Below, piece after piece: positions 2,931-38,900 of a stretch of 64,000 bases of DNA. The stretch is taken from contig JBHGNT010000008.1 in NCBI GenBank assembly GCA_043228905.1, forward strand, positions 11,222,001-11,286,000. Reading direction: 5' to 3'. Position 1 is the first letter of the stretch. Each line of letters begins with the position of its first letter. Origin of the DNA: Azolla caroliniana. Its lineage: Eukaryota; Plantae; Polypodiophyta. The notes beneath the pieces were generated by a model, which was not told the DNA's origin, did not search any database, and saw only the letters and a list, made by a program, of their open reading frames with translations. A program made the translations under genes and the position numbers.

Positions 2931-3267
2931 TGTTGAGCGGCAAGCTCAACCGGAGCCGGAACGGCTGAATAAGCCTGAGCCGGTAAGCCGGATGAATCGG
3001 TATGCCGGTGAGCAACTGAGCCGGTAGGCAGTAAGGACCGGTGAGCTGGGGAGCTGGTATGCCGGATTCAATCCATAACCAGAAGCCTAGTATAGGTTAG
3101 ACTACTAGGCAGTTATAGTCTCGTAGTTAGTGTCAAATGCTCGTGTGAGCATTGAAGTACACCGTACTTCTAACAGTCCCGTGCGGACTTGTATAAATAG
3201 CGCTGATGAGCACGTTGTAGATACAGAGCACAGAGTATTCATATAATTTTGAAAAATAGTGTGTTTT

Positions 3268-3268
<1 letters not shown>

Positions 3269-3310
<42 letters not shown>
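3269..3310 (+). repeat. (CT)n microsatellite of the A1 LTR, 5' flank of LINE-a
   Basis: Direct sequence. Confidence 0.95.
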
Positions 3311-3313
<3 letters not shown>

Positions 3314-6218
3314 GACATGAATGCTCGTACAAGAAGTTTCCAACTTGATTCACAAGAATCTTTCATGCCACATATCTCAAGGATGCAAGAGGATATGCAA
3401 ATGTATAACCGCTCTTCTAGCGATGAAAAAGATCCGGACCAATTTGGGAAGTTACTCCTACAAATGTGCAATAGTACCGGATTGCTTATTGCAAATGGTA
3501 TTTCCTTATGGCCCAACACTAATGGTTTTACATGTAGAAAACACAATGGAAATAGTGTGATTGACTATGTGCTACTTTCCGAATGTATTTTGGATCGTAT
3601 ACATAAATTCTCACTTGGTGAATGGACACCGGAATCCGATCATAGGCCTTTATGTATCGATCTCAAATGTATGCATAGGTTTGATTGTGAGAAGGCTATT
3701 GAAGATAATAAACAACCGCACTTGAGCATGAACCTTAAGCGAGCACCCATGTATTCCAAGATGGTTGAGGATATGTTACAAATGACAAAGATACAACATG
3801 GTGCCACACTAGAATGCAAATGGGAAGCTTTCAAGAAAGTCATTCTCTCATGTACAAACAAATGTTTTTCGACCAATCACACATCTTGGAAATGCACCAA
3901 GAAACTTAGGAAAAAATGGTTTGATAAAGAATGTCATGAAGCTCGAAAGTGCCTTATGGTTTTGGATGTAGTTAAGGATAAAGAGAATTACCAAAATCAT
4001 TTGCATGAGTATAAAAGGCTTATTCAAAGAAAGAGAAGAATATGGGAAGTTACTCAACAACTTATCCAAACGCAAGAGAAAGCACATGCATGTGCTAAAT
4101 TTTGGGGAAATCTAAAGGGAAAACGTGTTGAGAGTTATGGTGACTTAACTCTTCACGACTTGTCTATGCATTGTAAGAATTTATATGAGTTATCTCTTGC
4201 CGGAAAGATGATGTGTTATGGTTCTCTTTCACATATGCCTCCCTTCTTTACAATTGAAGATATATGCATAGGACTTAAGAAATTGGCCTCTCGAAAGGCA
4301 AGTGATCTTCAATGTATAAAGGCTGAAATGCTCAAATGGACGGGAAAGGAAGCACATATATGGATAAGCGATATGTTTAATGATGCATTGCAACATGGTA
4401 TGCCGTACGATTGGACTACAAATTGGATCAAACCTTTACATAAAGGTGGAGATATAAATAATGTAAACAACTATCGAACCATCATGGTTGGCTCATTAAT
4501 GGCAAAACTATTTGGATGTATAATGGAATCAAAGATAAGTGTATGGGCTGAAAAAAGTGGTAAGAGAGCTTATGGACAAGCTGGCTTTCGGAAACACCAT
4601 AGCACCATTGATCACCTTATCACCCTTCGAGTATTAACGGAGGAAAGTCGCCTTAGAGGTAAAGGTTTATATTGTTGCTTTGTAGACTTCAAGAAAGCTT
4701 TTGATATGGTACCTCGTGAGCATCTTTGGAGGCGAATGGAAGAACTTGAGGTGCCAAGTGAATATATGCTTGCAATTTCCCGAATTTTATGAGAAGGTTA
4801 TATGTTGTGTGCGCATGAGAGATAAACTTTCAGATTTTTTCAAAAGCACTATTGGTGTTAAGCAAGGATGCCCACTCTCACCAACACTATTTGGTCTATG
4901 CATTGATGAATTGGAAGAAATGGTTACCAAGTTTGCAAAGGAAGAATGTGTTGAAGAAGTTGCCATTGGGAATGTTGTGATTATGCTTTTGCTATATGCA
5001 GATGATGTAGTGCTTTTTGCAAATACTTTAGGAGATGCACAAAAGCTTATGAAGGCATTGGAAAAATTTTGCATGCATACTAAATTAAGTGTCAATAGCT
5101 CTAAAACAAAGATTATGCTTGTGAAGAGCCAAAAAAGAGATAAACCATGCATTATGTACAACAATGAGCCACTTGAATGTGTGGAAAGCTTCAAATATCT
5201 TGGCCTTGAAGTTCCTTCAAATCATAGATGGAATGAATGTGCTACACGCCGCTTAGAGGCAGGCAAGCGAGCATACTATGCATTTGAGAACACATGCAAT
5301 CTTGGAGATATTAAGTGTTGGGTCCTCAAGAAATATCTTTTCGACACTTTGGTGACACCGGTTCTTCTCTATGGGGTGGAAGTATGGGGCGGTAGCATCC
5401 CTAAATCTATGTGGAAAGAGTTTGAAAATGTCCAAAAGCATTTTCTTACCAAGTTTCTACAAGTTAAGAAACAAACGCCCTACACCCTCCTCCTCCTTGA
5501 GACGGGATCGCTTCCCATTGAGATCATGGCCATGGAAAGGGTTGTTGAATACATGCTTAAGGTTCAAAAAAGTCCCTCACATCGACTTCCTAGAATTGCG
5601 TGGGAAGCAAGCAAAAAGATCCAAAAGACGCATAAAAGCAAAATTTTGTGTTCCGGTTGGATGCAAGATATAGAAAAATGGTTTGGTAGATGGGATGCGA
5701 GACACTTGCTTCATGATGCATCATTAGATTCCTCTGTAAATGAGGCATTTTTGCAACGCCAATGTATCATGACATGGGACAAATGTGGAGGCTCACGCTT
5801 CACACATTATACTACACATGTTGCACCTAACTACAAAACCATATTCTTCGCGGAACGGGGAAATCGTACACATCCATACATGTTAGAGCCCATACCGTTA
5901 TCTTCCATTCGAACCATTGCTTCCATGCGACTTAGCTCACATGCATTGCGATGTGAAACAGGGCGTTGGGGTACAAGTGATGAGAGTGGTCGGTTATGCG
6001 CACTTTGCCCTAAACAAGTTCGCGAGTCTGAGTATCACACTTTGATACAATGCTCTGCCTTTGATCATATTCGACCATGCTTTACACATCTCTTCGATCG
6101 AGCCCAATCTTTGCATGAATTCCTCTCACAACCACAATGTGCACTCTCGATTGCAACATTCATTGGTAAAGTTCTTGAACATCGAGAGTCACTACTCACT
6201 TTCACACATATCACGTGA
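3311..6218 (+). pseudogene. LINE-a ORF2 (partial APE endonuclease, RT, CCHC), single frameshift near 4785-4790
   Basis: ORFs 3266-4792 and 4701-6218 join at ISRI/FYEKVIC across a T run. Confidence 0.88.
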
Positions 6219-6291
6219 AATGTAATATTTTTGGTCTCATAGGTCATATTTGACCTCCGAAGACGATAATAAATCTATCTATCTATCTATC
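3311..6291 (+). mobile_element. LINE-a: 5'-truncated RTE-X-like non-LTR retrotransposon
   Basis: Starts mid-APE domain (GDMNART, SVIDY, SDHRP). RT motifs YCCFVDFKKAFD, KQGCPLSPTLF, LLYADD. C-terminal LSSHALRCETGRW..CALC..EYH..C motif. 3' hairpin and (ATCT)n tail. Confidence 0.88.
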
Positions 6292-6317
6292 TCTCTCTCT
6301 CTCTCTGTCTCTCCCGC

Positions 6318-6350
<33 letters not shown>
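6272..6350 (+). repeat. (ATCT)n LINE tail merging into (CT)n of the host LTR
   Basis: Direct sequence. Confidence 0.9.
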
Positions 6351-6355
<5 letters not shown>

Positions 6356-6390
6356 GTTCTTTCTAACGCTTCCGCAAGCAATCTTTCTCA

Positions 6391-7870
6391 CCTGTTTCGA
6401 CATATCCGGGACGTTCGGGCTTCCGAAGTTCCCAAAATCAATCTTCATGGGATGTCATGTGATTGGATGCTCCCGAATCGACAAACCATACGTTGTTCAA
6501 AGTGGAAGCGGTAGTTGATGCAAGTCCGGACATTGAGTGTGCTTCGTGCTTCACTATGAACATTCTGCCGCGGTCACCGTAGTCGGAGTTCGTGGTGTAA
6601 TTTGCTAGTTGTCGGCCTTGCTCACGCTTCTTTTTCCGACACTCCTCTTCTTAGTGGTTGGGTTTTCCGTAGTACCCGCACTGAACTGGGTTCCTACGGT
6701 TGGTTGGTCCGGCGTGATGACTCCCCCTTCCACCAAACTCTTTGGGGCCGTTTCTATCTGCTTGCCATTGGTGGGAGTTATGATGTTGATTGTGTTGACC
6801 TTGGCCGTATTGGCCTCTCCTGCCGTGACCGTGTCCTCTTCCTCCATCGAAGTTCGAATATAGCATTTGTCCTTCGTGTGCATTGTTCCTTTGACGCACG
6901 TGATTCTCTTCGACCAGCAATAACAATTGGAGATCAAAAAAGGAGGGAGGATTCTCTCTCGCGAGAACGACCGATCTTATTGCGCCAAATCGCAGTGCTA
7001 AGCCACCGAGGCATATCTGCACCATTTCTTCGTCGTCAATGCTAACATTGATCAATCTAAGGGCATCACACAACTCCTTAATCTTTAAGGTGTAGTTGCC
7101 GACTGACATGTCCCTTTGTTGGAGATTGTTCAGCACCTGTCGAGGTTGGAGCTTTCGTGCACCGTATTGGCTGCGAAGATCTTCTTGAGGTTTTCCCACG
7201 CCTACTTCGGCGTTTTTGCCTCTCGAATGTAGCCAAGCATATGATCATGAACGCATGATGCAAGGCAATACAACACACGGCTTGCGGCCTGATCTTAAGC
7301 GGGATAGTCGACATGTGTTGGGTTGGGGTGTGATTCGTGAGCTCCTTCAATGTAGCTCCACTAGCCTTGTCCGACAATATATTGATGCATCTTGTATTCC
7401 CAAGATGCAAAGTTTGTTCTGTCAAGCTTCTCGGTAGGAAGAGTGCTTCCCATTTGAGTATTCATGGTGATTTCTTCTCTGTCGATGGACCAGTTCTGTT
7501 GATTGTCGGCGTGCAGCACAACACAGTCGAAAATGCTTGAGCAAGCAACCACTCGCTCTGATACCATGTAAGGAAATGAGGAGGCAAGAGTGGTTGTAAT
7601 GCAACGGAAGATGAGTGTGTGTGTGTGTCTCAAGACAGAGTGAGAGAGATTGAGAGAGAGAGAGCTCTTAAGATAGAGATAACAAAACTGTATATTAACC
7701 AAAATTACATCAAAGCATAAGACATCCAACAACAACTAAGTTACAAGGGGTTGGTTTAAATACCAACTGAGCTAGGGCAAGTCCCCTTTCTACTATTTAC
7801 AAAACTAGCCCGGTATGTCCATGAGCTAGTGTGAAACCTATCTATGGGAAGTTGAGTTCGATTCTCAACA
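6391..7870 (-). mobile_element. Ty1/copia C1, 5' portion: LTR 7567-7870, tRNA-iMet PBS 7553-7566, degenerate gag and protease start
   Basis: LTR reads TGTTGAGAATC...CCTTACA on minus, followed directly by TGGTATCAGAGCGA. gag LPTEKLDRTNFASWEYKMHQY; zinc knuckle CGYYGKPNH. Homologous to C2. Confidence 0.9.
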
Positions 7871-13720: not shown

Positions 13721-16700
13721 AAAAGTGATAGGTGAGTCATTCTATTTGTAGATAATGGATGAAGAATCTATTATTGAAGTGTTTGAACATGAGAGGGATG
13801 ATAAAGATAAACCTTTGGGCATTGTAAATGTGAGAGGAACTCTTACATATGCAAAGATTTGAGTTGAAATAATTGAGGACGGTATATTTTATGAACCATT
13901 TTCCTTTGTGTACACAAATATTTTGAATGGGAAACAAGAAGAGAAAAAATAATGTTACGGCTTCATATGAGTCTATCCATGAAACTAAACATAAGGTTAA
14001 TTTGTTAGTAATTTCATTATTGATATGCATTTTGGATTATTCCACGTCTGCTCTTTGAGATATATATATCAAGTTCAAGATTGTTTTATTATAAATTACA
14101 TTTTTTTTATCACGCTATATATTCTTCATATATCTCAATAAACTTAGAAAAAAACTTATATGTGGCTTATATATGTTATACCTCTAGTGTTTTGGGTAAT
14201 GTTTCCTAATTGTGTGTGCATTACTTTGTACTTTACACATTGTGTTTTCAATCTATGTGGCACTTGATGAAGCATTTCTAGGAATTGCATATGATGTTTA
14301 ATGTTCATTCATAATTTTGCGAGTCATCAATTGTAAAGGCGGTCATTGATCCCTTCTAGGATTGGAAACTATGTGTGCATGTATATTTTATATGTAAGGG
14401 TATTTAAAGTGGGTGGTTATCAAAAAATATATTGGTAGTAAGGGGTATTTTTATTAATCTTTTTTCTACAAAAGGGTCACTAAAATAGTAAAAACTATAC
14501 GTATAAGGGGTTACTAAATGATGTCATGAACGCACATGATACAACCATCTTATATATAGTGGAGTCCCCGGGTGAAGCACAAGGCAAACTCAATGAAGAA
14601 GACCACTCCCGGATCAGAGGAAGTGTGGTAAGTTGATTACGGAGCATCTAATCACATGACGAGCCATGAAGAGTGGTTCTCATTTTTAGAGAAATCGAAA
14701 CAATTGGGAATTGTCGAAACCGGAGACAACACCCCTCACCCGATTGTGCATGCCAGAGAAGTCCCTTTAAGCCATGTCGGACAAAAGGGAAAGCTGATGA
14801 ACGTACTTCACATTTTGACAATCACAAAGAACCTGGTGTCGTTCGAACAAATCGTCGACCAGGGAATGCAAGTGCGGTTTACGCACCTCGGGTGCCTCAT
14901 CGAGGAGAAGGGCCATATAATCACGCAAGGGCGCAAAGACGGGAGGATGTTCATCCTCAACACCAATGACATAGGCACCGCCTTGTTTGCCAAAGGACAA
15001 AAGACTAAATTGGACATCAATCTCTGGCACATGTGGATCAACCATGTCAACTATCGGAGGCATCAAGACCTGCAATTGAAACATGTTGTTCTCGGATCGC
15101 CGAAATTCAGTGGCCGGAAGGCCCAAATATGTGAAGCCTGCCAACTCGGGAAGCAACACCGGCTTCCATTCCCCACCGAACAAAACCGGAGTTGTAACAA
15201 GCTCGACTTAATCCATTCGAATGTATGGGAACCGACATAAAACGTTAGTCTTGGCGAGAGTCGGTATTTTGTCTCCTTTATCAACGACTACAGCTGTCAC
15301 ACATGGATCTACCTCATTGAGAGGAAAAGTGAAGTCTTTGACTATTTTCGGAATCTACAAAGCCTAGTCGAGAGGGAAACTAAAAGAAAGATCAAGTGCC
15401 TGGGGTCAGATGGCGGAAAAGAATACTTTTCCGACCAATTCAATAGTTATCTGCAGCAAAAAGGAATTCAAAGAGAATTCAGCTGACGATACACACAGGA
15501 ACAAAACTGTGTGGCCGAGAGAAAGAACCGGTCGATTATCAACGCGGCAAGGGCAATGCTAGAGGAGAAAAGCATGCCCAGGTTCTATTGAGCTGAGGCA
15601 GTCCGGACGGTCGTCTACATCCAAAACCGGATCAGAGATAAGGTGTAGCACATGAGCTGTATTTCGGGTGGAAGCTGAATTTGAGACTCCTTCGGATATT
15701 CGGTAGCATAGCATATGTGCATGTACCGAATGAGAATCGGACGAAGTTGGATTCGAAGTTAGAGAAGTGCATACTCATCGGCTACTCACATAAACAAAAG
15801 GGGTATAAGTGTTATAACCCCCAGACTAAACAGGTTAGACTAAGTCGAGATGTCGAGTTTGATGAGTTGGCATCATGGTACTCTATACCGACTCCAACTC
15901 CTGACAAAGGCTCGATTCCAAAGGATGAGGCTAATGAAACTAGAGAGGTTCAGGTAGAAGATGAGGAATTTTGTACTCTAAAAGAGAGTCCAATCTTGTT
16001 TCGGTTGAGCGGGCCAAACTATGGATTGAGTCGGAATGACCAACTATGGATTGAGTCGGAATGACCAGTCAGATGAAGAACCGGCATGTACTTGAAACTT
16101 TTTCGTGCTCTCCCTGCGCAAGGAACTGAGGAGACGGTTCACGCGCAAAGAGAAGGGGAAGAAGAAGATGTCGGGATACGACACCGGCAGTGAAGGGTCA
16201 GATGGGAGCAAATCTGATTCTGGATAGGATGAAGGTGGAACTTCAGAAATGAAGTCCGAACCGGCTGCCGAAAAATTGCGCCGGTCAACCCGCCAAAAGA
16301 TCCCCGTAAAACGGTACGAATACAATGAGTACATGGTGCATCACTATATGTATATGACCAAGGTGGTGGAATTGCATGAGCCAGAGAGCTACGTAGAAGT
16401 AGCGAAAGACGCAAATTGGCGTGCTGCTATGGAGGAAGAAATGCGGGCACTCGATGCCAATGACACATGGGACCTAGTTGACCCTCCCCGTCATTATAAA
16501 CCGATCGGTTGTAAGTGGGTATATAAGGTAAAGTACAATGCCGACGATTTAGTCAACCGGTACAAGGCCCGATTAGTGGCGAAGGGATCGTATAGACCCA
16601 CGGAATGGACTATGACGAGACCTTCGCTCTAGTAGCGAAGATGACGACGGTTCGTGTGGTACTGGCTGTTCCTGCGGCAAGAGGATGGCATCTTCACTAA

Positions 16701-19563
16701 ATGGACGTGAAGAATGCATTTCTTCAAGGTGACCTTGAAGAACGGGTCTATATGATCCAAGCCCTCGGTTTTCAATTGGAGTTGAATAGGTTAGCGATGT
16801 GCCGACTCAAAAAGTCACTTTATGGTCTGAAGCAAGCCTCCCGAGCTTGGAATGTGAAAATCACGCACCGGTTGCGTAAGATGGAGTTTGTGGCCTCAAA
16901 GTCCAACTCTTCACTGTTCATCCGGAAAGGTCCGGACGGTCCGGTTTGTATCCTACTATATGTAGATGATCTAGTCATCACCGGACCCGGACTCGATGAA
17001 ATCGGCCGTGAAGTCCCAATTGTCGGACGCATTTGAAATGAAGAACTTGGGGGACCTTCATTATTTTATTGGGATCGAGGTGATTCGGACCCCCAACAAC
17101 ATATTTCTCTCACAACGCCATTATGTGTTGAATATGATGTACAAGTTCGGCATCGATCTCCACACCCCTGGATCGGAACCTGAACCTATGTCCCGACTCC
17201 GGACCGGCCTGCAATGAGAAACGGTTTTGACAAATTGTCGGAAGCCTTATCTACTTGACAATCACCCGACCCGACATCATTTATCCGGTCGGAGTGATCA
17301 GCCAGTTTATGCAGAAGCCGATCGTGGAGCACCTTCAGTGCACACATAGACTATTGCGATATGTGAGTGGCACGAAGGACCGGGGACTGTTATACCAACA
17401 GAGTATAGCTATGAAGTTAGTCGATTATACGGATGCCGACTGGGCTGATGATGCATCGGATCGCCGATCCACCTCCGGTTATATGTTCTCTCTTGGTAGC
17501 ATGGTTGTTGCGTGGAGCAACAAAAAGCAGCCAACAGTGGCTCTCTCGAGCACTGATGCTGAATACCGGGGCACTACCATTGCCACTTGTGAAGCCATCT
17601 AGCGTCGGCGACTGTTGCGAGACCTCCGGATCGAGGTGCCGACCCTGATCCTTGATCTACTATGACAACGTAAGCAGCGTAGAACTCGCCAAGTACCCTC
17701 TATTCCATGCTCGGACAAAGCATATAGAAGTGCATTATCACTTTGTCCGTGAGCGGGTCCTGAGAGGTGAAGTTGAACTTCGGTATGTTCACACAGATTG
17801 GTAGGTTGCCGACATCTTCACCAAGCTGCTTGGATTGGACAAGTTGCAACACTTTTCAGAGATGCCCGACATTCAACATCTTGACGTGGCGCACTTGAGG
17901 GGGAGAACGGGAACCAAAATGGGTAATGGCACCGGACAAGGAGCCGGAGAGAAAGAGGAACGAAACAAGACAGGGGCTGAGATAAGAAGAAAAAGTAAGA
18001 TGAGTCGATTGGAAAAGTCGACACATCCGAACAAGTCGGAGCAAGCGGCATCGGCGACAGACTCATGAAGGATAGAGCTCATCGGAAGATGGCCAAGAAC
18101 CAGACATGGTCCGATGTGGTGAAGGGCCTTGTAAAAGATTATGTGCGAAAGCAATAGAAAACCGAACACAGAAAATACGCAGGTTTAATGGAGAGCTTGA
18201 ATATGCACAGTACGCGGGAGAGACAGAGAGAGAGAGAACACACAGAAACTCAATTCAAAATAATACTCAATCTGTACATACACCGTGCTTAGTGAGCACC
18301 TTTTATACAAGCCCTGAGAATAGGGCTGACACAAATACTGTCAGTACTTGACCGCTCATAAATGAGCCTACTACACAAACTCCCAAAATTATTCCCTTAC
18401 GAGGAATAACGCTCTAACGGCCGAGTCTTCGGTTTACGCACCGATATGGCCCTGTTATGCATACTGATTTACGCACCCAGTCTACACACTGGGCTACGCA
18501 TCGTATTACGCACGAATGTTGAGCTTGTCACTCAACACTCCCCCTCAAGCTCAACTTGAGGTTCCACCTGCTCCGCCAGATCTATGCTCTGGTTCCTTCT
18601 AGCTTCACGCCTCGTTCGCGCTCCTCGACCTGTTTGATTCTGCGCGCCTCAACCCTTTCGGTCGGCTTGTCCGCTTACATGGCCCTTCTCAGCTTCCTTG
18701 TTGTTCCGGTGTTGGCGCCTCTTCTGCTGCCTTCTCTTCCGCTTGGCCCTTGGTTGATTCAGCGTATCCAAATCAAACGTCCGAACCGACTCAGCTTCCT
18801 CCGATCGGTTTTCGCTCTCGTCCGAGTTCGTTGTCTCCAACTGGTCTTCGGTCTTCTCGCCATTGATGGCTTCGTCTCCCCCATGCTTGGTTGGCTTCGG
18901 CTCTTTCTTTCGACTGCTCCCCTTATGTCCGCTTTCGGAGTCTTCCGCGGATCCGCCCTCGGCTTCTTTAGCCAATACGACATCGAATTCGTCATCCGAC
19001 TCGGTGTGATGGTCTTTTCCGCTCCTTTCCTGCTCCCTTCCGTGGTCATCTGGGACGTCTCTCCCCCTCAAGTTCAGCACGTCGAGGTGACGCAACCCAA
19101 GTGCACCCGAGAATTGCCGCAACTTGTCCAGACCAAGAGGCTTGGTGAAGATGTTGACGTTCTGTCGATCCGTCGAAACATACTGAAGTTCGACTTCACT
19201 GGAGGACACGCTCACAGACGAAATGGTAGTGCACCTGAATGTGCTTAGTCCAGGCGTGGAAGACGAGGTTCTTAGCTAGTTGGATGTTGCTGAGGTTATT
19301 GCAGTAGATTGTCGTTGGATCGGATACCTCCACTTGCAGATCCTTAAGTAGCCGCTTCAACCATATGGCTTCGCATGTGGCGATAGCCGCTCCTCTATAC
19401 TCAGCTTCGGTGCTTGACATCGCAACTGTCGGATGCTTCTTGCTACTCCACGCGATCACGGCACTCCCAAGAGAGAACATGAAACTGGATGTGGATCAGC
19501 GATCGCCGGCGCTTCCGGCCCAATCAGCATCGGTGTAACCGACCAACTACTCGGCAGTATCGG

Positions 19564-20369
19564 TGTCGTAGTGTAGGTTGCACACTATGTGGAAATTATA
19601 TTTTTGTCCCTCCAGATAGAGAATGGAGTGCTCGGTGAGAACCGGAAGAAAACGGCATACCGGCAAGGAGGAAAACGGCATACCGGCAAGGAAGAAAACG
19701 GCATACCGGCAAGGAAGAGCCGGATAAAGAGACATAAATGTAAAAGAAAAAGGAAATACTCACTACTGCGCAAGGCGTGATTCGAACTCTGCACCTCCAC
19801 GTTGACAAACCCCAACCTTACCATTACATTAACTTATCTTAAGTGTTTTAAATATAGATTTAATACGTATAAGACCTTTATTTATGCATACCTTTATTAA
19901 AAGGTAAATCGTGTATTTTTTTTTATATATGAAAAAGACGAGACACTAAAAATAACTCATGCACATCTAGCGTGCATGAGCCCTATACTTAGGAAATAAA
20001 AAAGCATCACATGCACATTTAGTGGACATGAACACTTTTTGTAAAAAAAAAAAAAACATGAAGCCATGCTTAGCTCTTCCTTCCTTATATAAGGAGGAGA
20101 GAAATATGTAAAGGGTTGTTGATTATTTGGATTAAGTATTAATCAATACAAAAATTATTCGTGGGATTCACGATTTATACGTCTACTTCTCTCTTAACAC
20201 CCTAAGTACCAATTAATATAGTATACTCGTGTGATTCACGAGTTTCTTATCTTTCTCTTTGCTATTTACTCATAATTAATCTCTATCTCACGAACTTCTT
20301 TCTCCTAGTCCAAGACCTCTGTGGTTCCCACCCGACTCACGCAACGATCCGAAGCCGAAAGGCACGACA
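19564..20369 (+). mobile_element. Gypsy (Phygy-like) solo LTR, 806 bp, 4-bp TSD TCGG
   Basis: Termini TGTCGT...ACGACA with TCGG on both sides. Removing it restores the A3 frame YRTDTAE. 3' end resembles the G2 LTR end. Internal 23-bp repeat x3 at 19648-19716. Confidence 0.85.
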
Positions 20370-23086: not shown

Positions 23087-23347
23087 TGTTGCACACAGTG
23101 CTCGGCCACAACCGAGGAATAGAATCAACTCACAGAAAACAGGAAATACAAAGTGCACGAAGACAATAGAGAGGAGAGTACACAGGGTGTTTTACGTGGA
23201 AAACCCTAAATGGGAAAAACCACGGGAGTCCTCAAACTCCAACTATCACTCTACACAGAGATGTACAATGGTGAAGCTACAAGGCAACAACCTTGAGCTC
23301 ACTGTCTTCGCCACAGGCGGCGGTAATACACAGAGGCAACGACCTCC

Positions 23348-23378
<31 letters not shown>

Positions 23379-23728
23379 CGGCTGCTATCTTCACTCCCTC
23401 TAAGTGGCAAACAGAAAAATAGGCAACAACAACAAACTGTTTTCCCTAAGTCATATTTATACACATATGACTTTCGGGCTATTTACAAATATAGCCTCAA
23501 GGGCCCTTGGCAAACATATTCACAAATATGTCCCCGCATCCGGATCTCTCTCCGGGTACATTCGTCATCCGGCTCCGTAACCGGGGTCTTCATCATCCGG
23601 CTCCGTAGCCGGGTACTCTTCATCCGGCTTCATGCCGGGTACTCTTCATCCTCCGGTTCCGTAACCGCAACCGGGCTTGCCGTCATTCATCTCCGGACAT
23701 CCCATCCGGAGGGACCGAAATCCCAACA
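23087..23728 (-). repeat. B0 3' LTR (642 bp)
   Basis: Direct repeat of 27843-28508 with TG...CA ends. Confidence 0.96.
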
Positions 23729-23738
23729 AACTCCCCCT

Positions 23739-27812: not shown

Positions 27813-27842
27813 TTTCTGCACTGCCTTCGCTCTGATACCACT

Positions 27843-28508
27843 TGTTGCACACAGTGCTCGGCCACAACCGAGGAATAGAATCAACTCACAGAAAACAGGA
27901 AATACAAAGTGCACGAAGACAATAGAGAGGAGAGTACACAGGGTGTTTTACGTGGAAAACCCTAAATGGGAAAAACCACGGAAGTCCTCAAACTCCAACT
28001 ATCACTCTACACAGAGATGTACAATGGTGAAACTACAAGGCAACAACCTTGAGCTCACTGTCTTCGCCACAGGCGGCGGTAATACACAGAGGCAACGATC
28101 TCCTCTCTCTCTCCCTCTCTCTCTCTCTCTCTCGGCTGCTATCTTCACTCCCTCTAAGTGGCAAACAGAAAAATAGGCAACAACAACAAACTGTTTGCCC
28201 TAAGTCATATTTATACACATATGACTTTCGGGCTATTTACAAATATAGCCTCAAGGGCCCTTGGCAAACATATTCACAAATATGTCCCCGCATCCGGATC
28301 TCTCTCCGGGTACATTCGTCATCCGGCTCCGTAACCGGGGTCTTCATCATCCGGCTCCGTAGCCGGGTACTCTTCATCCGGCTTCATGCCAGGTACTCTT
28401 CATCCGGCTTCATGCCGGGTACTCTTCATCCTCCGGTTCCGTAACCGCAACCGGGCTTGCCGTCATTCATCTCCGGACATCCCATCCGGAGGGACCGAAA
28501 TCCCAACA
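27843..28508 (-). repeat. B0 5' LTR (666 bp)
   Basis: Direct repeat of 23087-23728; adjacent PBS. Confidence 0.96.
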
Positions 28509-30761
28509 GTCATGTGGTTTGACGTGCCGGAGTCGACGTACCACACCTTGTCCGACTTCGGGGTGAACTTCTTCATCGAGTTTGCTTCGTGTCTCATCAT
28601 GAAGACTGACCCTTTTCCGGCTTTTCCAGATCCTTCAGCGTAGTGGAATCGCAACTGATTTCCTTTGTCGGTCTGTCCGGAACTTGATCCGGATCCGGTC
28701 CTCTTCGAATCGGCGCGCTTCTTCCAGCACTCGCTCTCCTTGTGGCCTTTTTTTGCCACAGTACCAACATTCCGCGACAGATTTCCCTTGGCGGTTCTCG
28801 TCACCTCGACTCCCCCTATTTCGCACCAACTCGCCTCGTCCGCCACGACCACGGGGCCTATCTCCCTCCATGTACAACATCTTGATGTCGGCATGCGTGC
28901 TTGTTGACACACCCGTGTGGTTCTCCTCTATAAGGAGCATCGACTATAAGTCGAAAAACGACGATGTATTCTCCTGTGTACACACATCAGTTCGGAACGC
29001 TCCGAACTTCGATGCCAATCCCCCGAGACAGATTTGCACCATCTCGCCTTCCTCGACGTTCACATCGATAGAGGCTAAGGAATCGCATATCTCTTTGGTC
29101 TTCGAGGTGTAATCAGCCACCGACACGTCGCGTTGTCGTAAATTGCTCAGCTCCTGTCGCCGACTATTCCCACGCCGGGAAATCTCTGTGTGTCGATTCG
29201 GGTGCTATGTCATTTGCTCCGTCGACATAGCTCCAGTAACCGTGCCCGAACAGGTACTGGTGCATCTTGTAGGACCAAGACGCGTAGTTGTTTTTGTCTA
29301 GCTTCTCAGTAGGAAGCAAGCTAGCCATGCCTCTATCCATTTTGTTTTTCCTGTTCTTCTTCGTTAGTTTTCTTTTCAAGCTATGTCGGCTGCAGAGGTT
29401 CTCAACCCTCACGCTCTGATACCATGTAAAAGATTATGTGCGGAACCAATAGAAAACCGAACACAGAAAATACGCAGGTTTAATGGAGAGCTTGAATATG
29501 CACAATACGCGGGAGAGACAAAGAGAGAGAACACATAGAAACTCAATTCAAAATAATACTCAATCTGTACATACACCGTGCTCAGTGAGCACCTTTTATA
29601 CAAGCCCTGACAATAGGGCTGACACAAGTACTGTCAGTACTTGACCGCTCATAAATGAGCCTACTACACAAACTCCCAAAATTATTCCCTTACGAGGAAT
29701 AACGCTCTAACGGACTCTTCGGTTTACACAACGAGGCGGCCTTGTTATGCGTACCAATTTACGCACCCATTCTACGCACTAGGTTACCAACTCGGATAAG
29801 AGTCAAGTATGAATCAGAGGCAACCGATTCGGACAAGAGCTGGAACGAATCGGAGGAAGCTGATTCAGTTCAACAATTTGATTCGGACGAGAAGGCAGCG
29901 GAAGTTGACACCGATACGGAGGAATCGATGAGTCAACAAACGCCAGAGTGATAGCAGCGAGGGAGCTGAGATGGGCCTATTGAGCAGATAGGCCGATGGA
30001 GGTCAAGGAGCGTAGAACCGGGGGGTCGCGGGAACCAGAACCAAACTGGATGAGGAGCGTGAGCGAGGCAGGAGGACGCTAGAAGGAGTCGAACAAAAGA
30101 ACCGGCTACCACAGAAACTAACTCCACGATTTGACCTCAAGTTGAGCTTCAGGGGGAGTGTTGAGCGAGCAAGCTCAACCAGATCCGGATCGGCCGAATA
30201 AGCCAGAGACGGATCGGTATCCAAATGGAGAACTAGATTGGTGTCCGGAACTAGGAGCCGGATCGGATTGAAACCGGTACGTCGTTAGAGGCCTGCGGAT
30301 CCAGCCTAGTACGTAGGCATATATTTGGGAGTCAGTGTTAGTCGCTCGTATGAGTATTGATGTATTTTTCAGTACCTTCTATCAGTCCTTTATGGACTTG
30401 TATAAAAGTGCTCTTTGAGGACATTCTATGTACAAAGGATTATTATTATTTAATTTAGTTTTGTTGAGAATCAAGCTCAACTTGGTCTAGTGTGTGAACT
30501 CACCTTGAGAGTGAAGAGACACTCCAACGGTCAAGAGTCACCATTATGTCACCACTTTGTATTCTAGCTTTTAGTATGAATCATAGAATCATATTCTATG
30601 ACACATAACTTATGAGCTTTCACATTCCCCATGCTCCATGAGGCTTGCAGTTAATGAAGAGAGAGGGTGACTACATAAAGCACCCTCCTCCCACCTTGTA
30701 AAATGTTGAGTCTTTCTCCTTTGTCAATATACTTTTACCTTGCGTATTCTCTGTGTTTCAC

Positions 30762-30764
<3 letters not shown>

Positions 30765-30799
<35 letters not shown>

Positions 30800-30815
30800 T
30801 CTTCTTCTTTCTTTC

Positions 30816-30869
<54 letters not shown>
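30765..30869 (+). repeat. Compound (CT)n/(CTT)n/(CTTT)n tract at the 5' junction of LINE-b
   Basis: Direct sequence. Confidence 0.93.
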
Positions 30870-30873
<4 letters not shown>

Positions 30874-31009
30874 CGGTCGTGCGCCAGCAGCAACGGTCGT
30901 GCGCCACGCTGTCGTCGCTGCCGTCTGCGACGTCTGTCGCCGCCTGCTACCGAGTTGCAGTCCCCCCCCCATCGTGCGCTGCTGTCGTCTGTTGCCGCGC
31001 TGCCGCCTC

Positions 31010-31115
31010 TGACGTCCGTCGCCGTCTGCTGCCGTCTGCTGACGTCCGTCGCCGTCTGCTGCCGTCTGCTGCCGTCCGTCGCCGTCTGCTGACGTCCGTT
31101 GCCGTCTGCTGCCGT
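31010..31115 (+). repeat. GC-rich 10-bp-unit tandem repeat in the LINE-b 5' UTR
   Basis: GCCGTCTGCT / GACGTCCGTC units. Confidence 0.85.
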
Positions 31116-31365
31116 CGGCGTGCTGGACGACCTACTGCAGTTCGTCATCATCCGTTGTAGTCGCCGTTGCCGTTGCCGTGCTCTTCTCCACCTTGTTTCT
31201 TGAGGTTGCCGAGTGTCACGTTTCTTCTCTTGGCGGCGCATCCTTGTTCTTTTAGCGTGCTCGTCATGTGCGAAATGCCAATGTGACTACGACATAACAC
31301 AAACTCGGCTAAGTCTCGAACCCATTTATTTTATCCTTTTTTTTTCTTTTCTTATTGGCACTACA

Positions 31366-32172
31366 ATGTCTAAACGAAAGGAACACAAGGATACACAAGA
31401 CGAGGCTATAAGTAAGGAGGACTTTTTGGATATGTTTAACCGTTTAACAAAAATAGAGACGGATATGAAAAAATGGGTGAAAGACGCCGAAACCCACAAG
31501 AAAAAAGATAGAGAGGAAAAAGACACCCTCAAGGCCGAAATAGAAAAACTTAAAGAGGAAAACACAAACCTCAAACAACAACTTAATGACATCAAGGTAT
31601 CCCGAGAGGACGGTGAAATATCCTCCATAGAGGATATAAAAGATGAGATCAAAAAAGTTAAAGAGGAGGTTAAAAATAACATAGAATTAGCAAAAACGGG
31701 TTGGGTAGATGTCGTTAAAAGAAACATTAAAAAAGAAATAAAGGATGAAAATATTGTTAATACCACCCTCGAAGAGGAGAAAATGCGTCAGGCCCGACGC
31801 CTAAATGTGCGTGTCACTGGGCTCAAGGAAGGTGCATCCCCGGACGAGGATGCACAAACACTCGGGAAAATGCTAGGGTACACAACGACCCTACCTATCA
31901 CCAAAGCTTGGAGGGCCGGACGCGACACAACTAGGAAGAGAGCCTTAGTTCTTCAATTTAAAGACTTAGACTCTAGAATCACTTTCTTTAAGAAGAGACC
32001 AATTCTTCGAGGATTGGGTGGGGACCCTATCTATCTCGATGAAGACCTCACCAAGATGCAAATTGAGCATCGCAAGAGTTGTATGCCAAAGGTTATGCAA
32101 GCTCGCAAAGACGGGCATCGCGCCTTTTATCGAGATGGGCGAGTGATCATAAATGATCGCACTACTAATTGA
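31366..32172 (+). CDS. LINE ORF1 protein (coiled coil plus L1/Tnp22-type RRM and CTD), 268 aa
   Basis: ATG at 31366; K/E heptad region; RRLNVRVTGLKE and IYLDEDLT motifs typical of ORF1 RRM/CTD. Confidence 0.8.
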   Translation: MSKRKEHKDTQDEAISKEDFLDMFNRLTKIETDMKKWVKDAETHKKKDREEKDTLKAEIEKLKEENTNLKQQLNDIKVSREDGEISSIEDIKDEIKKVKEEVKNNIELAKTGWVDVVKRNIKKEIKDENIVNTTLEEEKMRQARRLNVRVTGLKEGASPDEDAQTLGKMLGYTTTLPITKAWRAGRDTTRKRALVLQFKDLDSRITFFKKRPILRGLGGDPIYLDEDLTKMQIEHRKSCMPKVMQARKDGHRAFYRDGRVIINDRTTN

Positions 32173-35100
32173 CGGCGTGTGGCCCATGTGACAGAAAACA
32201 CACTTAGGATGACCTTATGGAATTGTAACGGCGCACTCTGGACACACCCCGGCCGCCTAGAGGGGATATTAAAGGAATCAGATATAGTTTGCCTAGTAGA
32301 AACACACCAAAGCCCAAATAGGGGACTCCCACGAGTCGAAGGATTTCGTTGGGAGTCGGCTTTTAGACAAACCTCACGTCGATGCACTACCAGGGGATCT
32401 GGAGGTGTCGCAATATTGTTTCGGAGGGAGCTACATAATAGGATAGAAATACTGAGCACTGACCCAGAAGCTCGTTTTATGTGGGTGAAAGTCTCCACAA
32501 GCAAGGACAAGGCAGTAATTTTCGCCATTTGTTACTTCCCCCCAAAAGGCTCTCGTTATAATCTGGCTGGCGAGGCGAGATTAGTTGATGACGGAGTGCC
32601 ACATGGGCCTTCCCCATATGAACCTCTATCGGATGACATAATTCGATATTCTTCCCAAGGCGAAGTATTCCTTGTAGGAGACTTTAATGCGAGGACCCAA
32701 TCCCGACAATGCACAATATTTCAAATGAATAGAAACCTAGAAATGGTAAATGTTGATCCTTCAGACATAGACACCACACGTAAATCAAAGGATCAAGGTG
32801 CAGACGCCACGAGCTTTGGCCATCATTTGCTCGAACTCGGTAGTCGGCACCAGATGGTCATATATAATGGTTTAGCCAAGTGGCCAGGTTCGGAAGAGCT
32901 CACATGTTTCCCACATGGAGGAGGGGAAAGCACAGTCGATTATCTAATAGGACGCCCTGAAGCCACCCACATGATTAACTCCTTCCGAGTGGCCCCATGT
33001 CCTATTGGCGCGGACCATAGTTTCTTATACTTCGAGATAAAATGCGATATCTCTAACGTCACCAACTCTAGTCAACCACGCCATGACATCACAATACATT
33101 TCACACATGAGCTCTCTGACATATATGCTCGACATGTTCAAGCCCATCTGTCCTCCCTTGATCCCTCCCTACCTTTAGAGAGCCTTAATACGAAACTCAC
33201 ACACATCCTTCATTCTGCAGCGGTTAGCAGCTTCCCATACACGAAACACTCCAATCAAGGTAAAGTAGGATCTATGCCACAAAATAGATGGTATGATGAG
33301 GATTGTAGGTGCTTACATCGACAACTTACAATATCGCAACTCAGTGGTAGTATTACCTCAGTACAAGCTCGTAAAGAAATGCGCAAGATGACACGTCGTA
33401 AGAGACGAGCATGGGAGGCATCCCAATATTGGGAACTCTACCACATGCTCATGAGTAACGATTGTGCCACTGCATGGAAGAGATTACGGGAACCAAGACC
33501 ACAAACACCCATCGAAGATCCCGAAACTTGGCACACTTATACAGAGAGACTTTACCACATCCCAAACCAACCACCCATTCCAATGCCTTCCACACCCCGA
33601 CCTACTGTGGGGACACTCTTCACGACCTCTAGGGTCACGAAGGTCATAAAGAAATTACAACATAGGAAGTCCATGGACCACACAGGGTTGCGAGCAGAAC
33701 ACATCATATACGCGAGAGAGTGCCTAGCTCCCTTACTAACTCTAATCTTCAATCGTGCCCTTGCAGAGGGTTTTCCATCACAATGGACCATGAACACAGT
33801 GGCCCCCATACATAAGGGGGGGGACCCCATGGACCCAAATACTTATAGGACCATTATGATAGGTCATACCCTTGCTAAATTATATGGTGCAGTAATGGAG
33901 GCAGAGCTTAGCGAGTATATGGAGACCTTAAATCTTCGTGCACCTGAACAGGCCGGTTTTAGACGAGCCTTCTCCACTATTGACCATATCTTCACACTTA
34001 GATGCTTAATTGACCAGACTAAGGCTCGCAAGAAGAAACTATATTGTTGTTTTGTGGACTTCCGCAAAGCCTTTGACACGGTCCCTAGAGAGCGGTTGTT
34101 TGATAGGCTTAAGAGCTTGAGGATACCAGATGACATGGTTTGGGCCATCTACGCACTATATGAACAAGTGTCCGGGTGTGTTCGATGCCCAGGCGGCATA
34201 TCCGATAGTTTCACTAGCACTATTGGTGTAAAACAAGGTTGCCCCTTATCTCCGACTCTTTTTGGGATCTACATTGATGAGATCACAGATTTTATTGCTC
34301 GTAAGGGAGGCAATGGAGTAGTCCTTGGAGATACGCAGGTGCGTATCTTGCTCTATGCAGATGACATAGTTTTGCTCTCTGAATCCGAACACGACCTACA
34401 AAGGCACCTTAATGCCTTAGATGACTTTTGCACACAACGAGGATTGGTAGTGAATCTAGGGAAAACTAAAGTCCTTATCTTCCACACGTCGGCCCAAGTT
34501 AGGGCTAAGTGTCACCTAACTATCTCCCATAGCCCAGTTGAGGTGGTTGGATCATATGTCTATCTCGGAGTCACTTTCAGTGCCCGCTCAGGTAAATTTT
34601 CGATGACACAAGCAGCGAAGGATAGACTTACAAGAGGACATGCATCCCTCTCACTCCTCGAGAGACAATGCCACCAAGCATACTTCCAAGAGCCACGAAC
34701 TAAAGGGTGGCTCTTTGACTCATTAGTGACTCCCTCTCTCATGTATGCATCAGCGGTTTGGGCCCCAGGACTACCATCTTTCATGTGGACGCAATTAGAG
34801 AGACCATTGGTGATGATGTTATCACGCCAACTCCGAAGCAAATCGTCGGTCCCACATGACATTATTAGGGCTGAGTTCACTCTACCCCCTATGTTAGTAG
34901 AAGCACTTTTTCAACTGGTAGTCTTTATACACAGGATACATAACCAACCACTTGATAGAATATCCCACCAAGCCTTTAAGGCTTCTCGAGCATTGTATGA
35001 GTCCGGCTATACTAGCTCATGGTATGGCATGATGGTGAGTTGGCTTCTTGCCAACGGTCTAGACATTATTAACCTCCCCCCCCTTAAGTACGACCACACG

Positions 35101-35922
35101 AATGATAACACTTTACTCTCTCATGAGGACCGTAATAAAGTAATACGCCAAGAAATATGGCAAATTTATACCCGGTATAAATGGATCACCCCACTAGAGC
35201 CACTCCCATCTAAAATGTCGTACTATAAAGAACACTTTATGCACTTCTCTGAGTTAGGTTTTATCACGCGCCCAAAATATCTAGATGTATTCTTACCACA
35301 TGCACTAAGGGTTGCCATTGGTCAACTTAGAATATCATCTCACCAACTTGAGATTGAGAATGGACGTACTAATGGAGTCCCTAGGGAGGAAAGGATATGT
35401 AGGTTATGCCACATAGAGATAGAGGATGAGTACCATTTTACATGCAAATGCCCCACCTATGCCGAGATAAGGGCAAAATACCAAGACATACTTGGTTCCT
35501 CTCCCACCCTCCCTAAACTATTAGATACACTAGATATAAAGAAATTAGGTAGATACATCTTAGAATTGAAACACCACAGAGAGAACAAATTACAAAACGT
35601 TGATAATAATGTTGCTAATGTTTACCAACATATAACAAATGAAGTTTTTCAGGAACAGGGGGAGACAATGAATGTCGACACACCTGTACCACTCGGACTT
35701 CTCCTTGATGAAGCAGAAAATCAAAGAAGAACCAAACGCCCTCGGATGCCGGGTTTCAAAGCAACTCGACGAGATGTAGAAGCAATAACGAAAATAAGGG
35801 AACGTGAACTACACCGCCTAGAAGCCATGGCTAGGGCACTCTATGCATCGGGACCATGGGTCACACCCACACCAAAAACTTTTGACCTCCCACTTCTTTT
35901 TGAGAGACTTGGGTGGAAATGA
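32173..35922 (+). CDS. LINE ORF2 (APE endonuclease, reverse transcriptase, CCHC finger); start uncertain (first ATG 32209)
   Basis: WNCNG, ETH, GDFNAR, STVDY, ADH; YCCFVDFRKAFD, KQGCPLSPTLF, LLYADD; ISSHQLEIENGR..CRLC..EDEYH..C. No internal stops. Confidence 0.93.
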   Translation, partial: RRVAHVTENTLRMTLWNCNGALWTHPGRLEGILKESDIVCLVETHQSPNRGLPRVEGFRWESAFRQTSRRCTTRGSGGVAILFRRELHNRIEILSTDPEARFMWVKVSTSKDKAVIFAICYFPPKGSRYNLAGEARLVDDGVPHGPSPYEPLSDDIIRYSSQGEVFLVGDFNARTQSRQCTIFQMNRNLEMVNVDPSDIDTTRKSKDQGADATSFGHHLLELGSRHQMVIYNGLAKWPGSEELTCFPHGGGESTVDYLIGRPEATHMINSFRVAPCPIGADHSFLYFEIKCDISNVTNSSQPRHDITIHFTHELSDIYARHVQAHLSSLDPSLPLESLNTKLTHILHSAAVSSFPYTKHSNQGKVGSMPQNRWYDEDCRCLHRQLTISQLSGSITSVQARKEMRKMTRRKRRAWEASQYWELYHMLMSNDCATAWKRLREPRPQTPIEDPETWHTYTERLYHIPNQPPIPMPSTPRPTVGTLFTTSRVTKVIKKLQHRKSMDHTGLRAEHIIYARECLAPLLTLIFNRALAEGFPSQWTMNTVAPIHKGGDPMDPNTYRTIMIGHTLAKLYGAVMEAELSEYMETLNLRAPEQAGFRRAFSTIDHIFTLRCLIDQTKARKKKLYCCFVDFRKAFDTVPRERLFDRLKSLRIPDDMVWAIYALYEQVSGCVRCPGGISDSFTSTIGVKQGCPLSPTLFGIYIDEITDFIARKGGNGVVLGDTQVRILLYADDIVLLSESEHDLQRHLNALDDFCTQRGLVVNLGKTKVLIFHTSAQVRAKCHLTISHSPVEVVGSYVYLGVTFSARSGKFSMTQAAKDRLTRGHASLSLLERQCHQAYFQEPRTKGWLFDSLVTPSLMYASAVWAPGLPSFMWTQLERPLVMMLSRQLRSKSSVPHDIIRAEFTLPPMLVEALFQLVVFIHRIHNQPLDRISHQAFKASRALYESGYTSSWYGMMVSWLLANGLDIINLPPLKYDHTNDNTLLSHEDRNKVIRQEIWQIYTRYKWITPLEPLPSKMSYYKEHFMHFSELGFITRPKYLDVFLPHALRVAIGQLRISSHQLEIENGRTNGVPREERICRLCHIEIEDEYHFTCKCPTYAEIRAKYQDILGSSPTLPKLLDTLDIKKLGRYILELKHHRENKLQNVDNNVANVYQHITNEVFQEQGETMNVDTPVPLGLLLDEAENQRRTKRPRMPGFKATRRDVEAITKIRERELHRLEAMARALYASGPWVTPTPKTFDLPLLFERLGWK

Positions 35923-38900
35923 GATTAGGCTTGGTGCAAAGTTTTATACACTACTAGAACTTTCTTAGCTTAAGCTATTTTCTTTTATTTTTAGTTTTGA
36001 TGATTGGATAAACACTCATCTTTTGTTGTAACCTATTTGTCTCATGGGCCAAATTTGGCCTTAGAAGACGTTAATATATCTTTCTTTCTTTTCTTTTTCT
36101 TACACACACACATAACTCACATCTCTTCCGCTTCACAAGAATCCATCTCTTGATTCTTTACATGGTATCAGAGCGATTTGGTAGCTCGATCTAGCCCATT
36201 CGCCTCATCATGATCGTGTGTTGTGCTCTACGCCGACGACCAAGAACCGGCTCATAACTATCATAGCTTCGCTACATAGCTCGCATTCGAAGAGAGAAGA
36301 AGAAGAAGAAGAATTGACATAATGAATACTCAAATGGGGAGTGCTCTGCCTACCGAGAAGTTGGATTGAAACAACTTCGCATCTTGGGAGTACAAGATGC
36401 ACCAATACCTTGTCGGACAAGGCTATTGGAGCTACATCAAATGAGCACATGAAGACCGACCCGACGAAGCGGCTCCCGGATACGTGACATGGGAGCAAGC
36501 CGCAAGCCGCATGATGTATTGTTTCGCAACATGTGTTCACGACCACATGCTCGGTTACATTCGAGATGCCAAGATGCCGAAGGAAGCGTGGGAAAATCTA
36601 CGAAAGATTTTTGCCGCCAACACGACCGCGAGGAAGCTTCAACTCCGCCAAGAGTTGAACAACATTCAACAAAGGGACATGTCCATCACGACATACACCT
36701 TGAAGATCAAGGAGCTTTGCGACTCACTCGGCTCAATAAGCGTAAGTACAAATGATGATGAGATAGTGCAAATATGCCTCGGCGGCCTCGCACCACGGTT
36801 CGGCACGATGTGAACCGCCGTTCTAGCACGGGAGAAATCTCCCTCCTTCTTCAAGCTCCAATCAATGCTATTGGTCGAAGAAAATCACGTGCGTACAAGG
36901 AGCAATGAGTCGGAAGGCCACATGCTCTACACACACTCTAATGGAGGAAGAGGACGCGGATGAGCGAGAGGCCGATTCGGCCAAGGACAAGGCGGACGAG
37001 GTCCAACCTATGACAACAACTCCCAATTTCGGCCGCAAAACGGAGGCCAACGAGGAACCTTCGCAAGAAGGGGGAGCTTCCAATCCGGCCCGAGCCGTCA
37101 AAACGCAACCGAATGCGGATATTGCAGAAAGCTCATCCACCACGAAGAAGAGTGCTGAAAGAAGATGCGTGAATCGGCTTCCACAAGCCGACAACTCACG
37201 AATTACGTACACAACTCCGACTACAAAGATCGTGGCGGAATGTATGCACACAATTCCGACCGTGGCGAAATGTACGGGCACAATTCCGACTACGAAGATC
37301 CTGGTGGAATGTATGCGCACAACTCCGACTGTGGCGGAATGTTCATGATGAAACATAGAGCAAACTCTATGTCGGCCGCTACCTCAACTAGTGCCTCCGG
37401 TCCGGAAGACGTATGGTTCGTCGATTCCGGTGCCTCGAACCATATGACATCGCATCAAGAATGGTTCCGAGAACTTCGAGAGCCGGACCGACCCAGCTAT
37501 GTCGAAACCGGAGACGACACTACACACCCGATTCGTCACATTGGCAATGTTCCGTTCGGAAAAGAAGGTAAGCAAAATTACATTAAAAATGTCTTGCATG
37601 TACTGACCATTACGAAGAATTTGGTCTCCGTCGGTCAAATTGTAGAGCAAGGGATGCAAGTTTGATTTAATCAAGGCGGTTGCTTCATCGAAAAAGAGGG
37701 CCGAGTCATGGCACATGGAAGAAGAGAGGGCCGGATGTTCATTCTCGATTCACGCGAGATGAAATCCGCCATGTTCGCGAAAAACACGAAAGCCGACTCT
37801 GACATAGAGCTATGGCACAAGCGAATCGGCCACATCAATCTCAACAAACTCAAAGCAATGAAATCGAAAGGAGTCGTCATCGGACTCCCAACATTCAAAG
37901 AGAAGGAGATTGAAGGTGTATGCGAAGCGTGCCAATTCGGGCAGCAACACCGACACCCATTCCCGAAAGAGCGGAACGTGAGCAAAGGTCTACTCGACGT
38001 AGTCCATTCTGACGTATGGGGACCGGCGCAGACGGCTACATTCGGCGCATGCCGATATTACGTGCTCTTCATCGATGACTTCTCTAGGCACACTTGGATC
38101 TACCCGATGCGGCAAAAGAGCGAAGTGTTCGGACACTTCCAAAATTTCAAGAATGAAGTCGAGAAAGCCACAGGCCAACATGTACGATGCCTATCGGATG
38201 GCGGCAAGGAGTACTTCTCGGACGATTTCACGGCGTATCTCCGAAAGGAAGGAATTCAGCAAGAATTCACTTGCCGACACACTCTGCAACAAAACGGAGT
38301 GGCCGAGCGCAAAAATCGGCACATCCTTGAAGTAGCGCGGGCCATGATGAACGAGAAGCACATGCCCAAGTCATATTCGGCCAAAGCTGCAAATGCGGCC
38401 GTCTACCTAATGAACTGATGCACAACATCCTGCGTGCACGAGTTCACTCTGCACAAAAAATACTTTGGAAAGAGGCCGAACTTATCGCACACCCGGATAT
38501 TCGGCGCAATAGCGTACGTGCACATCCCCGACGAGAAGCGTCAAAAGCTTGATCCAAAGTCGGAGAAATGTATCCTCGTAGGATACTCACTGGAGCAAAA
38601 AGGGTACAAGTGCTACAACCCCTCAACTCGAAAATCTCGAGTAAGTCGAGACGTCGTTTTTGACGAGTCTGCATCCTGGTACGCACCAGAGACGACTCCG
38701 CTCGACCAGGAATTTGCCGAACAAGAGATAGAGGATGAGGATTGCATTACGCCCATGTTCGAAGAGAGTCCGATCACTACCCGACTGAGCGGACCACAAG
38801 AGCCTTTGAGCGATCAAAGCACATCACGGCCTAGCCCGAAGATGGACAAGGGCAAGGCGAAAATGGCGGAATACACAGATGATTGTTTCGACGACGATGA

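Follow-up and report, generated by a model that had tools for sequence, protein, structure and literature searches.

The Kibi elements of fish belong to the Tx1/L1 group, and the 2004 paper by Kojima and Fujiwara is said to be their primary description. According to the available text of PMC3812793, the Kibi elements (KibiDr1, KibiDr2, KibiFr1, and KibiTn1) are APE-type non-LTR retrotransposons that target TC microsatellites, and Koshi, Waldo, Mino, and Dong are non-LTR elements directed to the microsatellites TTC, ACAY, AC, and TAA, respectively. The same text describes the rice MITE Micron as targeted to the TA dinucleotide microsatellite, and the mechanism of microsatellite targeting as poorly understood and credited to the endonuclease. 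In the literature searched, outside which most subscription papers and Repbase reports lie, no plant or RTEX LINE targeting CT was found; likewise, the available parts of PMC3747384, PMC5753468, PMC11203168, PMC12477816, PMC10294476, and PMC8287931 describe no such targeting.

Two LINEs, LINE-a and LINE-b, interrupt copia LTRs in the window, which is the whole 64,000-nt stretch of Azolla caroliniana DNA under analysis. As with Kibi, most copies of the two families occupy one microsatellite in one orientation; however, Kibi is hosted by fish, whereas LINE-a and LINE-b reside in a plant, are without the plant-L1 Pfam marks, and end in ATCT or TTTC tails. The CT target has likely arisen independently of Kibi. 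Koshi, Waldo, Mino, and Dong differ from both families in their motifs and their animal hosts. Micron is likewise a plant element with a dinucleotide microsatellite target, but it is a DNA transposon with another motif. The copies analysed below display a target bias, a strand bias, independence of LTR context, repeated independent hits in one LTR family, and stacking of LINEs. Most probably, two LINE families, distantly related and active until recently, target (CT)n in a strand-specific manner wherever it occurs, and their presence in LTRs follows the share of CT tracts that LTRs hold. They are a plant example of LINEs with a sequence-specific target, with more than 1400 young copies, several of which have open ORFs.

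Structure of the two insertions

LINE-a interrupts the 3' LTR of A1, a complete copia element whose 5' LTR is located 2.6 kb upstream of the window (L139:7384-7823) and is followed by the PBS. A 5-bp duplication is identical at both ends of A1, the 3' copy occupying 6391-6395 and the other lying beside the 5' LTR in L139. The initial annotation had placed LINE-a in the (CT)n of this 3' LTR, and the site agrees: the 21-unit tract precedes the element, the whole of which spans 3310-6292, and seven CT units and the remainder of the LTR follow its tail. The 5' LTR of A1 contains no LINE and carries approximately 7 CT units at the homologous position, compared with 28 at the filled site, i.e., approximately 21 more in the latter; the two LTRs differ at 24 of the 337 U3 bases compared. 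The ORF2 of LINE-a contains an APE endonuclease, an RT, and a C-terminal Cys/His motif, with one frameshift near 4786. In Pfam, RVT_1 lies above the cut-off and Exo_endo_phos_2 just below it in this truncated copy.

LINE-b is full length with open ORFs, extending over 30870-36074 with a TTTC-type tail to about 36100. Its placement in the CT/CTTT tract of the C2 LTR is likewise upheld; this LTR is followed directly by a PBS, which is presumably of the tRNA-Met type. Both Exo_endo_phos and RVT_1 are above the Pfam cut-off in ORF2; for ORF1, no Pfam family reaches the cut-off. Each LINE runs in the same direction as the CT strand, as initially described. The initial annotation also named uninterrupted sister LTRs (A3 and C1, given without coordinates) with a CT tract at the homologous position. 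This holds for the empty A1 partner and for empty members of the C2 LTR family, which carry a CT tract at the site of LINE-b; the CT-bearing LTRs inside the window, however, belong to other or related families, and no second copy of the C2 LTR is present in the window. The outer copia host of C2 (window 30159-30462 and 14600-30160) is itself split by nested copias (18132-29790 and 23086-28508). The coordinates of both insertions and of the telomere-repeat junctions discussed below are listed in Table 1.

Table 1. Coordinates of the LINE-a and LINE-b insertions in the window, and telomere-repeat junctions in copies elsewhere.
Feature	Position	Strand	Remarks
3' LTR of copia element A1, interrupted by LINE-a	2931..6390	+	
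(CT)21 target tract, 5' side of LINE-a	3269..3310	+	
LINE-a body, 5'-truncated	3310..6268	+	break matches L093 (full length, 4568 nt) at position 1611
Predicted LINE-a 3' hairpin	6241..6256	+	common to LINE-b via one compensatory and one wobble change
LINE-a tail	6269..6306	+	4 ATCT units, then 7 CT units of the target
Copia LTR C2, interrupted by LINE-b	30462..36162	+	PBS at 36163; lies within another copia's LTR (from 30159)
Compound CT/CTT/CTTT tract, 5' side of LINE-b	30761..30869	+	
LINE-b 5' UTR	30870..31365	+	GC-rich 10-nt tandem repeats
LINE-b ORF1, 268 aa	31366..32172	+	weak similarity to LINE-a ORF1 (26%, E 0.002)
LINE-b ORF2, 1249 open codons; first ATG at 32209	32173..35922	+	endonuclease, RT, C-terminal Cys/His motif
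Predicted LINE-b 3' hairpin	36046..36061	+	
LINE-b TTTC-type tail	36075..36100	+	runs into the LTR remainder
Telomere-repeat junctions, family a	L318, L324, L327		breaks at 2413, 1468, and 789
Telomere-repeat junctions, family b	L316, L321		breaks at 3480 and 4047

CT tracts at the insertion junctions

The 40 best matches to the 3' end of each family were collected with flank-free queries, together with 7.5 kb around each; L127, a duplicate of L111 (one of the two on a small contig), was dropped, leaving 79 copies, and the junctions were mapped against real full-length copies. Of the 79 copies, 66 have at least three CT units at one junction or at both, so that the tabulated flanks of most copies are CT-bearing. 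Ten of the 13 copies without a three-unit tract at either junction belong to family b, which is looser and may also use CTTT-like sites. Beyond the tail, at least two additional CT units are present in 28/40 (a) and 25/39 (b) copies, compared with 0.6% of random positions, although the 3' remnant often comprises 1–3 units and in a single copy is indistinguishable from tail slippage. Target-site duplications are unreadable inside a dinucleotide tract, and therefore so is the nick position; no classical duplication reaching past the tract was seen by eye.

Among the truncated copies, CT lies within 30 nt upstream of the 5' break in 24/30 (a) and 11/29 (b), 35/59 in total, and within 2 nt in 28/59; three or more CT units lie upstream of only 2.4% (≤30 nt) and 0.4% (≤2 nt) of random positions. 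Four more truncated copies have CT at their true outer end, beyond an internal deletion, an inversion, a short duplication, or a nested LTR, and another four have their outer end masked by an LTR element that arrived later, for an adjusted count of 39/55. Four of the remainder join an upstream repeat a few bases short of the CT position in its empty copies, which suggests deletion during joining. Truncation breakpoints at many positions abut CT, and the flanks beyond the tract differ between copies; together with the tracts of the empty sites, this sustains the microsatellite targeting proposed in the initial annotation.

The tract always runs in one direction, the ratio of CT to AG at the junctions being 44:0 (5') and 45:0 (3'). 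CA, TG, or AT tracts occur at none of the 5' junctions and at three of the 3' junctions, and 590 kb of random sequence contain 98 CT, 32 CA, and 15 AT tracts of at least six units. Genome-wide, 55 of the 56 full-length LINE-a starts are preceded by a CT-rich run. In a replicate set chosen by place and not by likeness, at least one extra CT unit is found at 18/19 ends, and three units at 10/19.

Alternatively, the elements could make the CT runs themselves, through tail slippage, a CT leader, or read-through, with no choice of target. The tails terminate in CT or TC, 22/28 truncated copies have a longer CT tract on the 5' side than on the 3' side, and the filled A1 site contains 28 units against about 7 in its partner. 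Furthermore, two pairs of full-length copies at different loci (L085/L093 and L087/L094, 2 and 2 of 56) have identical irregularities in the CT leader. Because these irregularities are common to copies at different loci, the full-length RNA appears to start inside the CT run, and part of the 5' CT in full-length copies likely travels in this RNA. To this extent, and in full-length copies only, the CT run may be counted as part of the LINE consensus, a possibility raised at the outset; truncated copies, which are without the leader, still abut CT. Moreover, in every paired case checked, the empty partner LTRs (A1, L097, L061, and L095) and family members carry the tract at the exact site, and at L061 the 7 + 13 units of the filled site match the approximately 20 units of the empty partner. 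Self-made tracts as the whole explanation are thus highly improbable.

It is no less improbable that the LINEs insert loosely into pyrimidine-rich or open sites and that copies merely persist in CT tracts as harmless places. Some family-b sites are only CTTT-like or contain a single CT unit. In addition, the available text of PMC12477314 describes microsatellites as landing pads used by plant elements in general, and that of PMC3812793 reports passive accumulation for the Drosophila element Waldo. However, the sampled copies are 97–100% identical and hence young, the strand bias is without exception, and no 5' junction uses a CA or AT tract; selection for safe sites would not yield a 44:0 strand bias.

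Earlier LINEs have also received new LINEs at their CT end, which has produced head-to-tail stacks both within and across the families (L086, L080, L068, L137, L133, L065, L277, and L288). One family-b copy (L125) contains a 740-nt 5' inversion with CT at its outer end. Two other family-b copies on different chromosomes (L103 and L106) share the same 5' break (position 1088) between unlike flanks, possibly derived from a shortened source element.

LTR context of the insertions

The initial annotation had described both LINEs of the window as sitting in LTRs and had proposed a lineage that parasitises LTR elements. Such LINEs would seek the CT tracts of LTRs and spread by LTR-driven transcription or by copying with the LTR element. 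As a control, CT tracts of at least five units were collected from 59 random 10-kb stretches, and the five touching a LINE were removed (111 to 106). LTRs around the LINE sites and the random tracts were called with one seed library (PBS, PPT, and paired repeats) from approximately 1.3 Mb, which misses some LTRs in both sets. By these calls, 41/79 LINE sites and 56/106 LINE-free random tracts lie in LTRs (odds ratio 0.96, 95% CI 0.52–1.80, p = 1.0). An earlier, less sensitive pass gave 20/80 versus 27/111, and an unmasked de novo search for PBS motifs gave nothing but LINE words. Separately, 26/40 family-a (p = 0.20) and 15/39 family-b sites (p = 0.14) are in LTRs, and a modest LTR preference may exist in single families.

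Many LTR families in the genome carry a CT tract, and because LTRs hold about half of the genome's CT tracts, the LINEs nest in LTRs without choosing them. Parasitism of LTR elements is accordingly accurate as a description only, covering about half of the copies and likewise half of the CT tracts, and two LTR sites out of two are expected in this copia nest; enrichment in LTRs over non-LTR tracts is not supported. A caution follows, namely, that LTR-nested insertions need not reflect LTR targeting. LTRs of the C2 family have been hit by LINE-a and by several subfamilies of LINE-b, with 79–100% identity to the reference copies, a spread that marks these hits as independent insertions.

Copying along with the host element would leave LINEs in both LTRs of a pair. 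This arrangement was found in one element, a copia with a 5-bp duplication (L273/L274, C1:16662100-16675400), where the CT tract of each LTR holds a LINE-a end. However, the 5' LTR contains 1.5 kb of LINE-a and the 3' LTR 50 nt, with different 5' junctions; the LTRs themselves differ at 6/237 bases, and neither junction occurs in any other member among the 20 loci fetched of that copia family. A second hit or gene conversion fits these features rather than copying. Because approximately 5/111 random CT tracts touch a LINE, double hits in one element are expected now and then. In the pairs of A1, L097, L061, and L095, the partner LTR is empty. In favour of LTR parasitism, LINE-b lies in sense, downstream of the position where the LTR's promoter is likely located. 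Given the equal LTR share of LINE-free tracts, the empty partner LTRs, and the unlike junctions of L273/L274, LTR parasitism is improbable, and insertion into CT tracts irrespective of LTRs remains the preferred reading.

Of the close same-strand pairs fetched from the first 100 of 647 LINE-a ends, only L273/L274 shared an LTR; the other pairs checked proved to be unrelated sites or stacked LINEs. A further hitch-hiking candidate (L076) was rejected as a partial tandem duplication ending inside the LINE.

Relationship of the two families

The two LINEs do not form one family; the ORF2 proteins of LINE-a and LINE-b are only 30% identical and represent two distinct families. At the DNA level, the two resemble each other only over short stretches. 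One of these is the final 48 nt, predicted to fold into the shared hairpin with a compensatory change. Exact 3'-end motifs, which give lower bounds, count at least 647 (a) and at least 803 (b) 3' ends in the 523-Mb genome, and the two families occupy 1.8% of the 590 kb of random sequence. In both, the 5' truncation is variable and the 3' end is fixed with a repeat tail, as in APE-type LINEs.

Among the named homologues in a protein search, those of a fern are closest to the LINE-b protein, and homologues also occur in a conifer, a liverwort, and a clam. An RT tree of 102 regions without clade labels places a and b in one 34-member group (support 0.95), which includes Taxus and Calypogeia proteins. 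The zf-RVT and DUF4283 domains are marks of plant L1; membership in that group was rejected, as Pfam reports neither domain and the tails are ATCT or TTTC, not poly(A). In the PDB comparison, L1 ORF2p scores no better than R2, and in the atlas the cluster named Tx1 is the 16th of 30, behind unnamed RVT_1 clusters. No clade name emerged from the PDB comparison, the protein search, the atlas, or the unlabelled RT tree.

The RTEX clade is characterized by a separate ORF1 and by the lack of RNase H. LINE-a and LINE-b combine both features with a short-repeat tail, a set common to RTEX and other clades, and with APE and RT domains, two ORFs, and a length of about 4.6–5.2 kb. For comparison, the available text of PMC10294476 gives a mean length of 4937 bp for bivalve RTE-X, and the part of PMC3747384 containing Table 3 lists short-repeat tails in all six green-algal RTEX families. 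The RTE-X label of the initial annotation, a putative one, fits the anatomy; in contrast to a and b, RTEX elements are not described as microsatellite-targeting in the available text of the literature compared.

A third related LINE family (L356, L358, and L362; ORF1 37–42% to LINE-b) likewise has a CT run at its start and then a G-rich telomere-like motif. An older b-like copy (L194:6447-6646, 76%) possesses a third tail motif, of the TCAT type, followed by a short CT stretch. In addition, over window 36007-36204, runs X2, X3, and X5 show much higher depth with loose ends upstream of the LINE-b 3' hairpin, involving contigs of other organisms; other elements may share a LINE-b-type 3' end.

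Proposed insertion mechanism

Target-primed reverse transcription is the established scheme behind the steps proposed here. The endonuclease would nick the AG strand, and the short-repeat tail of the RNA would pair with the freed end to prime synthesis. A UUUC tail could pair fully with the AG strand through G–U wobble, and an AUCU tail at three of four positions. Such tail–target pairing is described for L1 in the available text of PMC3812793. The tail–target annealing of the initial annotation agrees with the ATCT and TTTC tails, from which we infer the pairing itself. The shared 3' hairpin may serve in recognition of the RNA. When 874 and 1001 windows of the two families were compared as candidate pairing partners of the 3' end, the sequence next to the ORF1 stop came out best in each; the predicted pairing regions of LINE-b are located at window 32170-32210 and 35965-36074, and those of family a in the same places.

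At the 5' side, the cDNA end would anneal to the CT strand upstream. The tract would often be lengthened by this step and sometimes deleted by microhomology; rarely, telomerase might extend the cDNA end before this joining. Because the 5' tracts of truncated copies are mostly longer and the A1 site exceeds its partner by approximately 21 units, joining likely duplicates or extends the tract. The LINEs in this way interrupt and lengthen CT tracts, half of these in LTRs. With two enzymes of only 30% identity and different tails directed to one target, the basis of microsatellite choice (the endonuclease, tail pairing, or both) becomes testable.

Telomere repeats at 5' junctions

In 2/59 truncated copies, a C-rich telomere repeat stands between the CT tract and the LINE. 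A genome-wide pattern search found 14 distinct sites where CT passes into the C-rich telomere repeat. Five of these lie directly on a truncated 5' end of family a or b (two already in the sample and three new), compared with 3/111 random tracts that have a LINE directly downstream (p = 0.0004), and three further sites are near LINE-like sequence. With roughly 1.5 to 3.5 telomere repeats each, the fillers read C-rich in the sense direction, so that the G-rich strand is always on the cDNA end. In the opposite orientation, with the G-rich repeat after CT, none of the 22 distinct sites examined from the first 30 of 110 matches abuts a truncated LINE end; the G-rich-after-CT sites belong mostly to one LTR-like repeat family.

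The orientation of the fillers is what telomerase would write, and the repeats were likely added by telomerase. The varying repeat number suggests telomerase rather than a single template switch; the capture of telomeric RNA or DNA is possible. In telomerase healing of internal breaks, short G-rich repeats are added to a free 3' end, which is then joined, leaving interstitial telomeric repeats; here, in contrast, the extended end would be that of LINE cDNA during integration. No telomere-repeat 5' junctions of LINEs were found in the literature searched. The chances appear evenly balanced for the combined proposal that an old land-plant LINE lineage gained CT targeting independently of the fish Kibi elements and that telomerase extends the 3' end of truncated cDNA with telomere repeats before it is joined to the CT tract. 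If the fillers are telomerase products, they constitute a record of telomerase acting on a retrotransposition intermediate.

Telomere repeats also occur beside full-length copies. One full-length LINE-b (L104) is preceded by approximately five telomere repeats and six CT units, and the leader common to L087 and L094 contains a partial telomere repeat.

Other repeats of the window

The window also contains three tandem arrays, namely, a near-palindromic AT-rich repeat of approximately 20 nt (41750-43250), an 84-nt repeat (43300-44270), and a 105-nt repeat (61200-61700).
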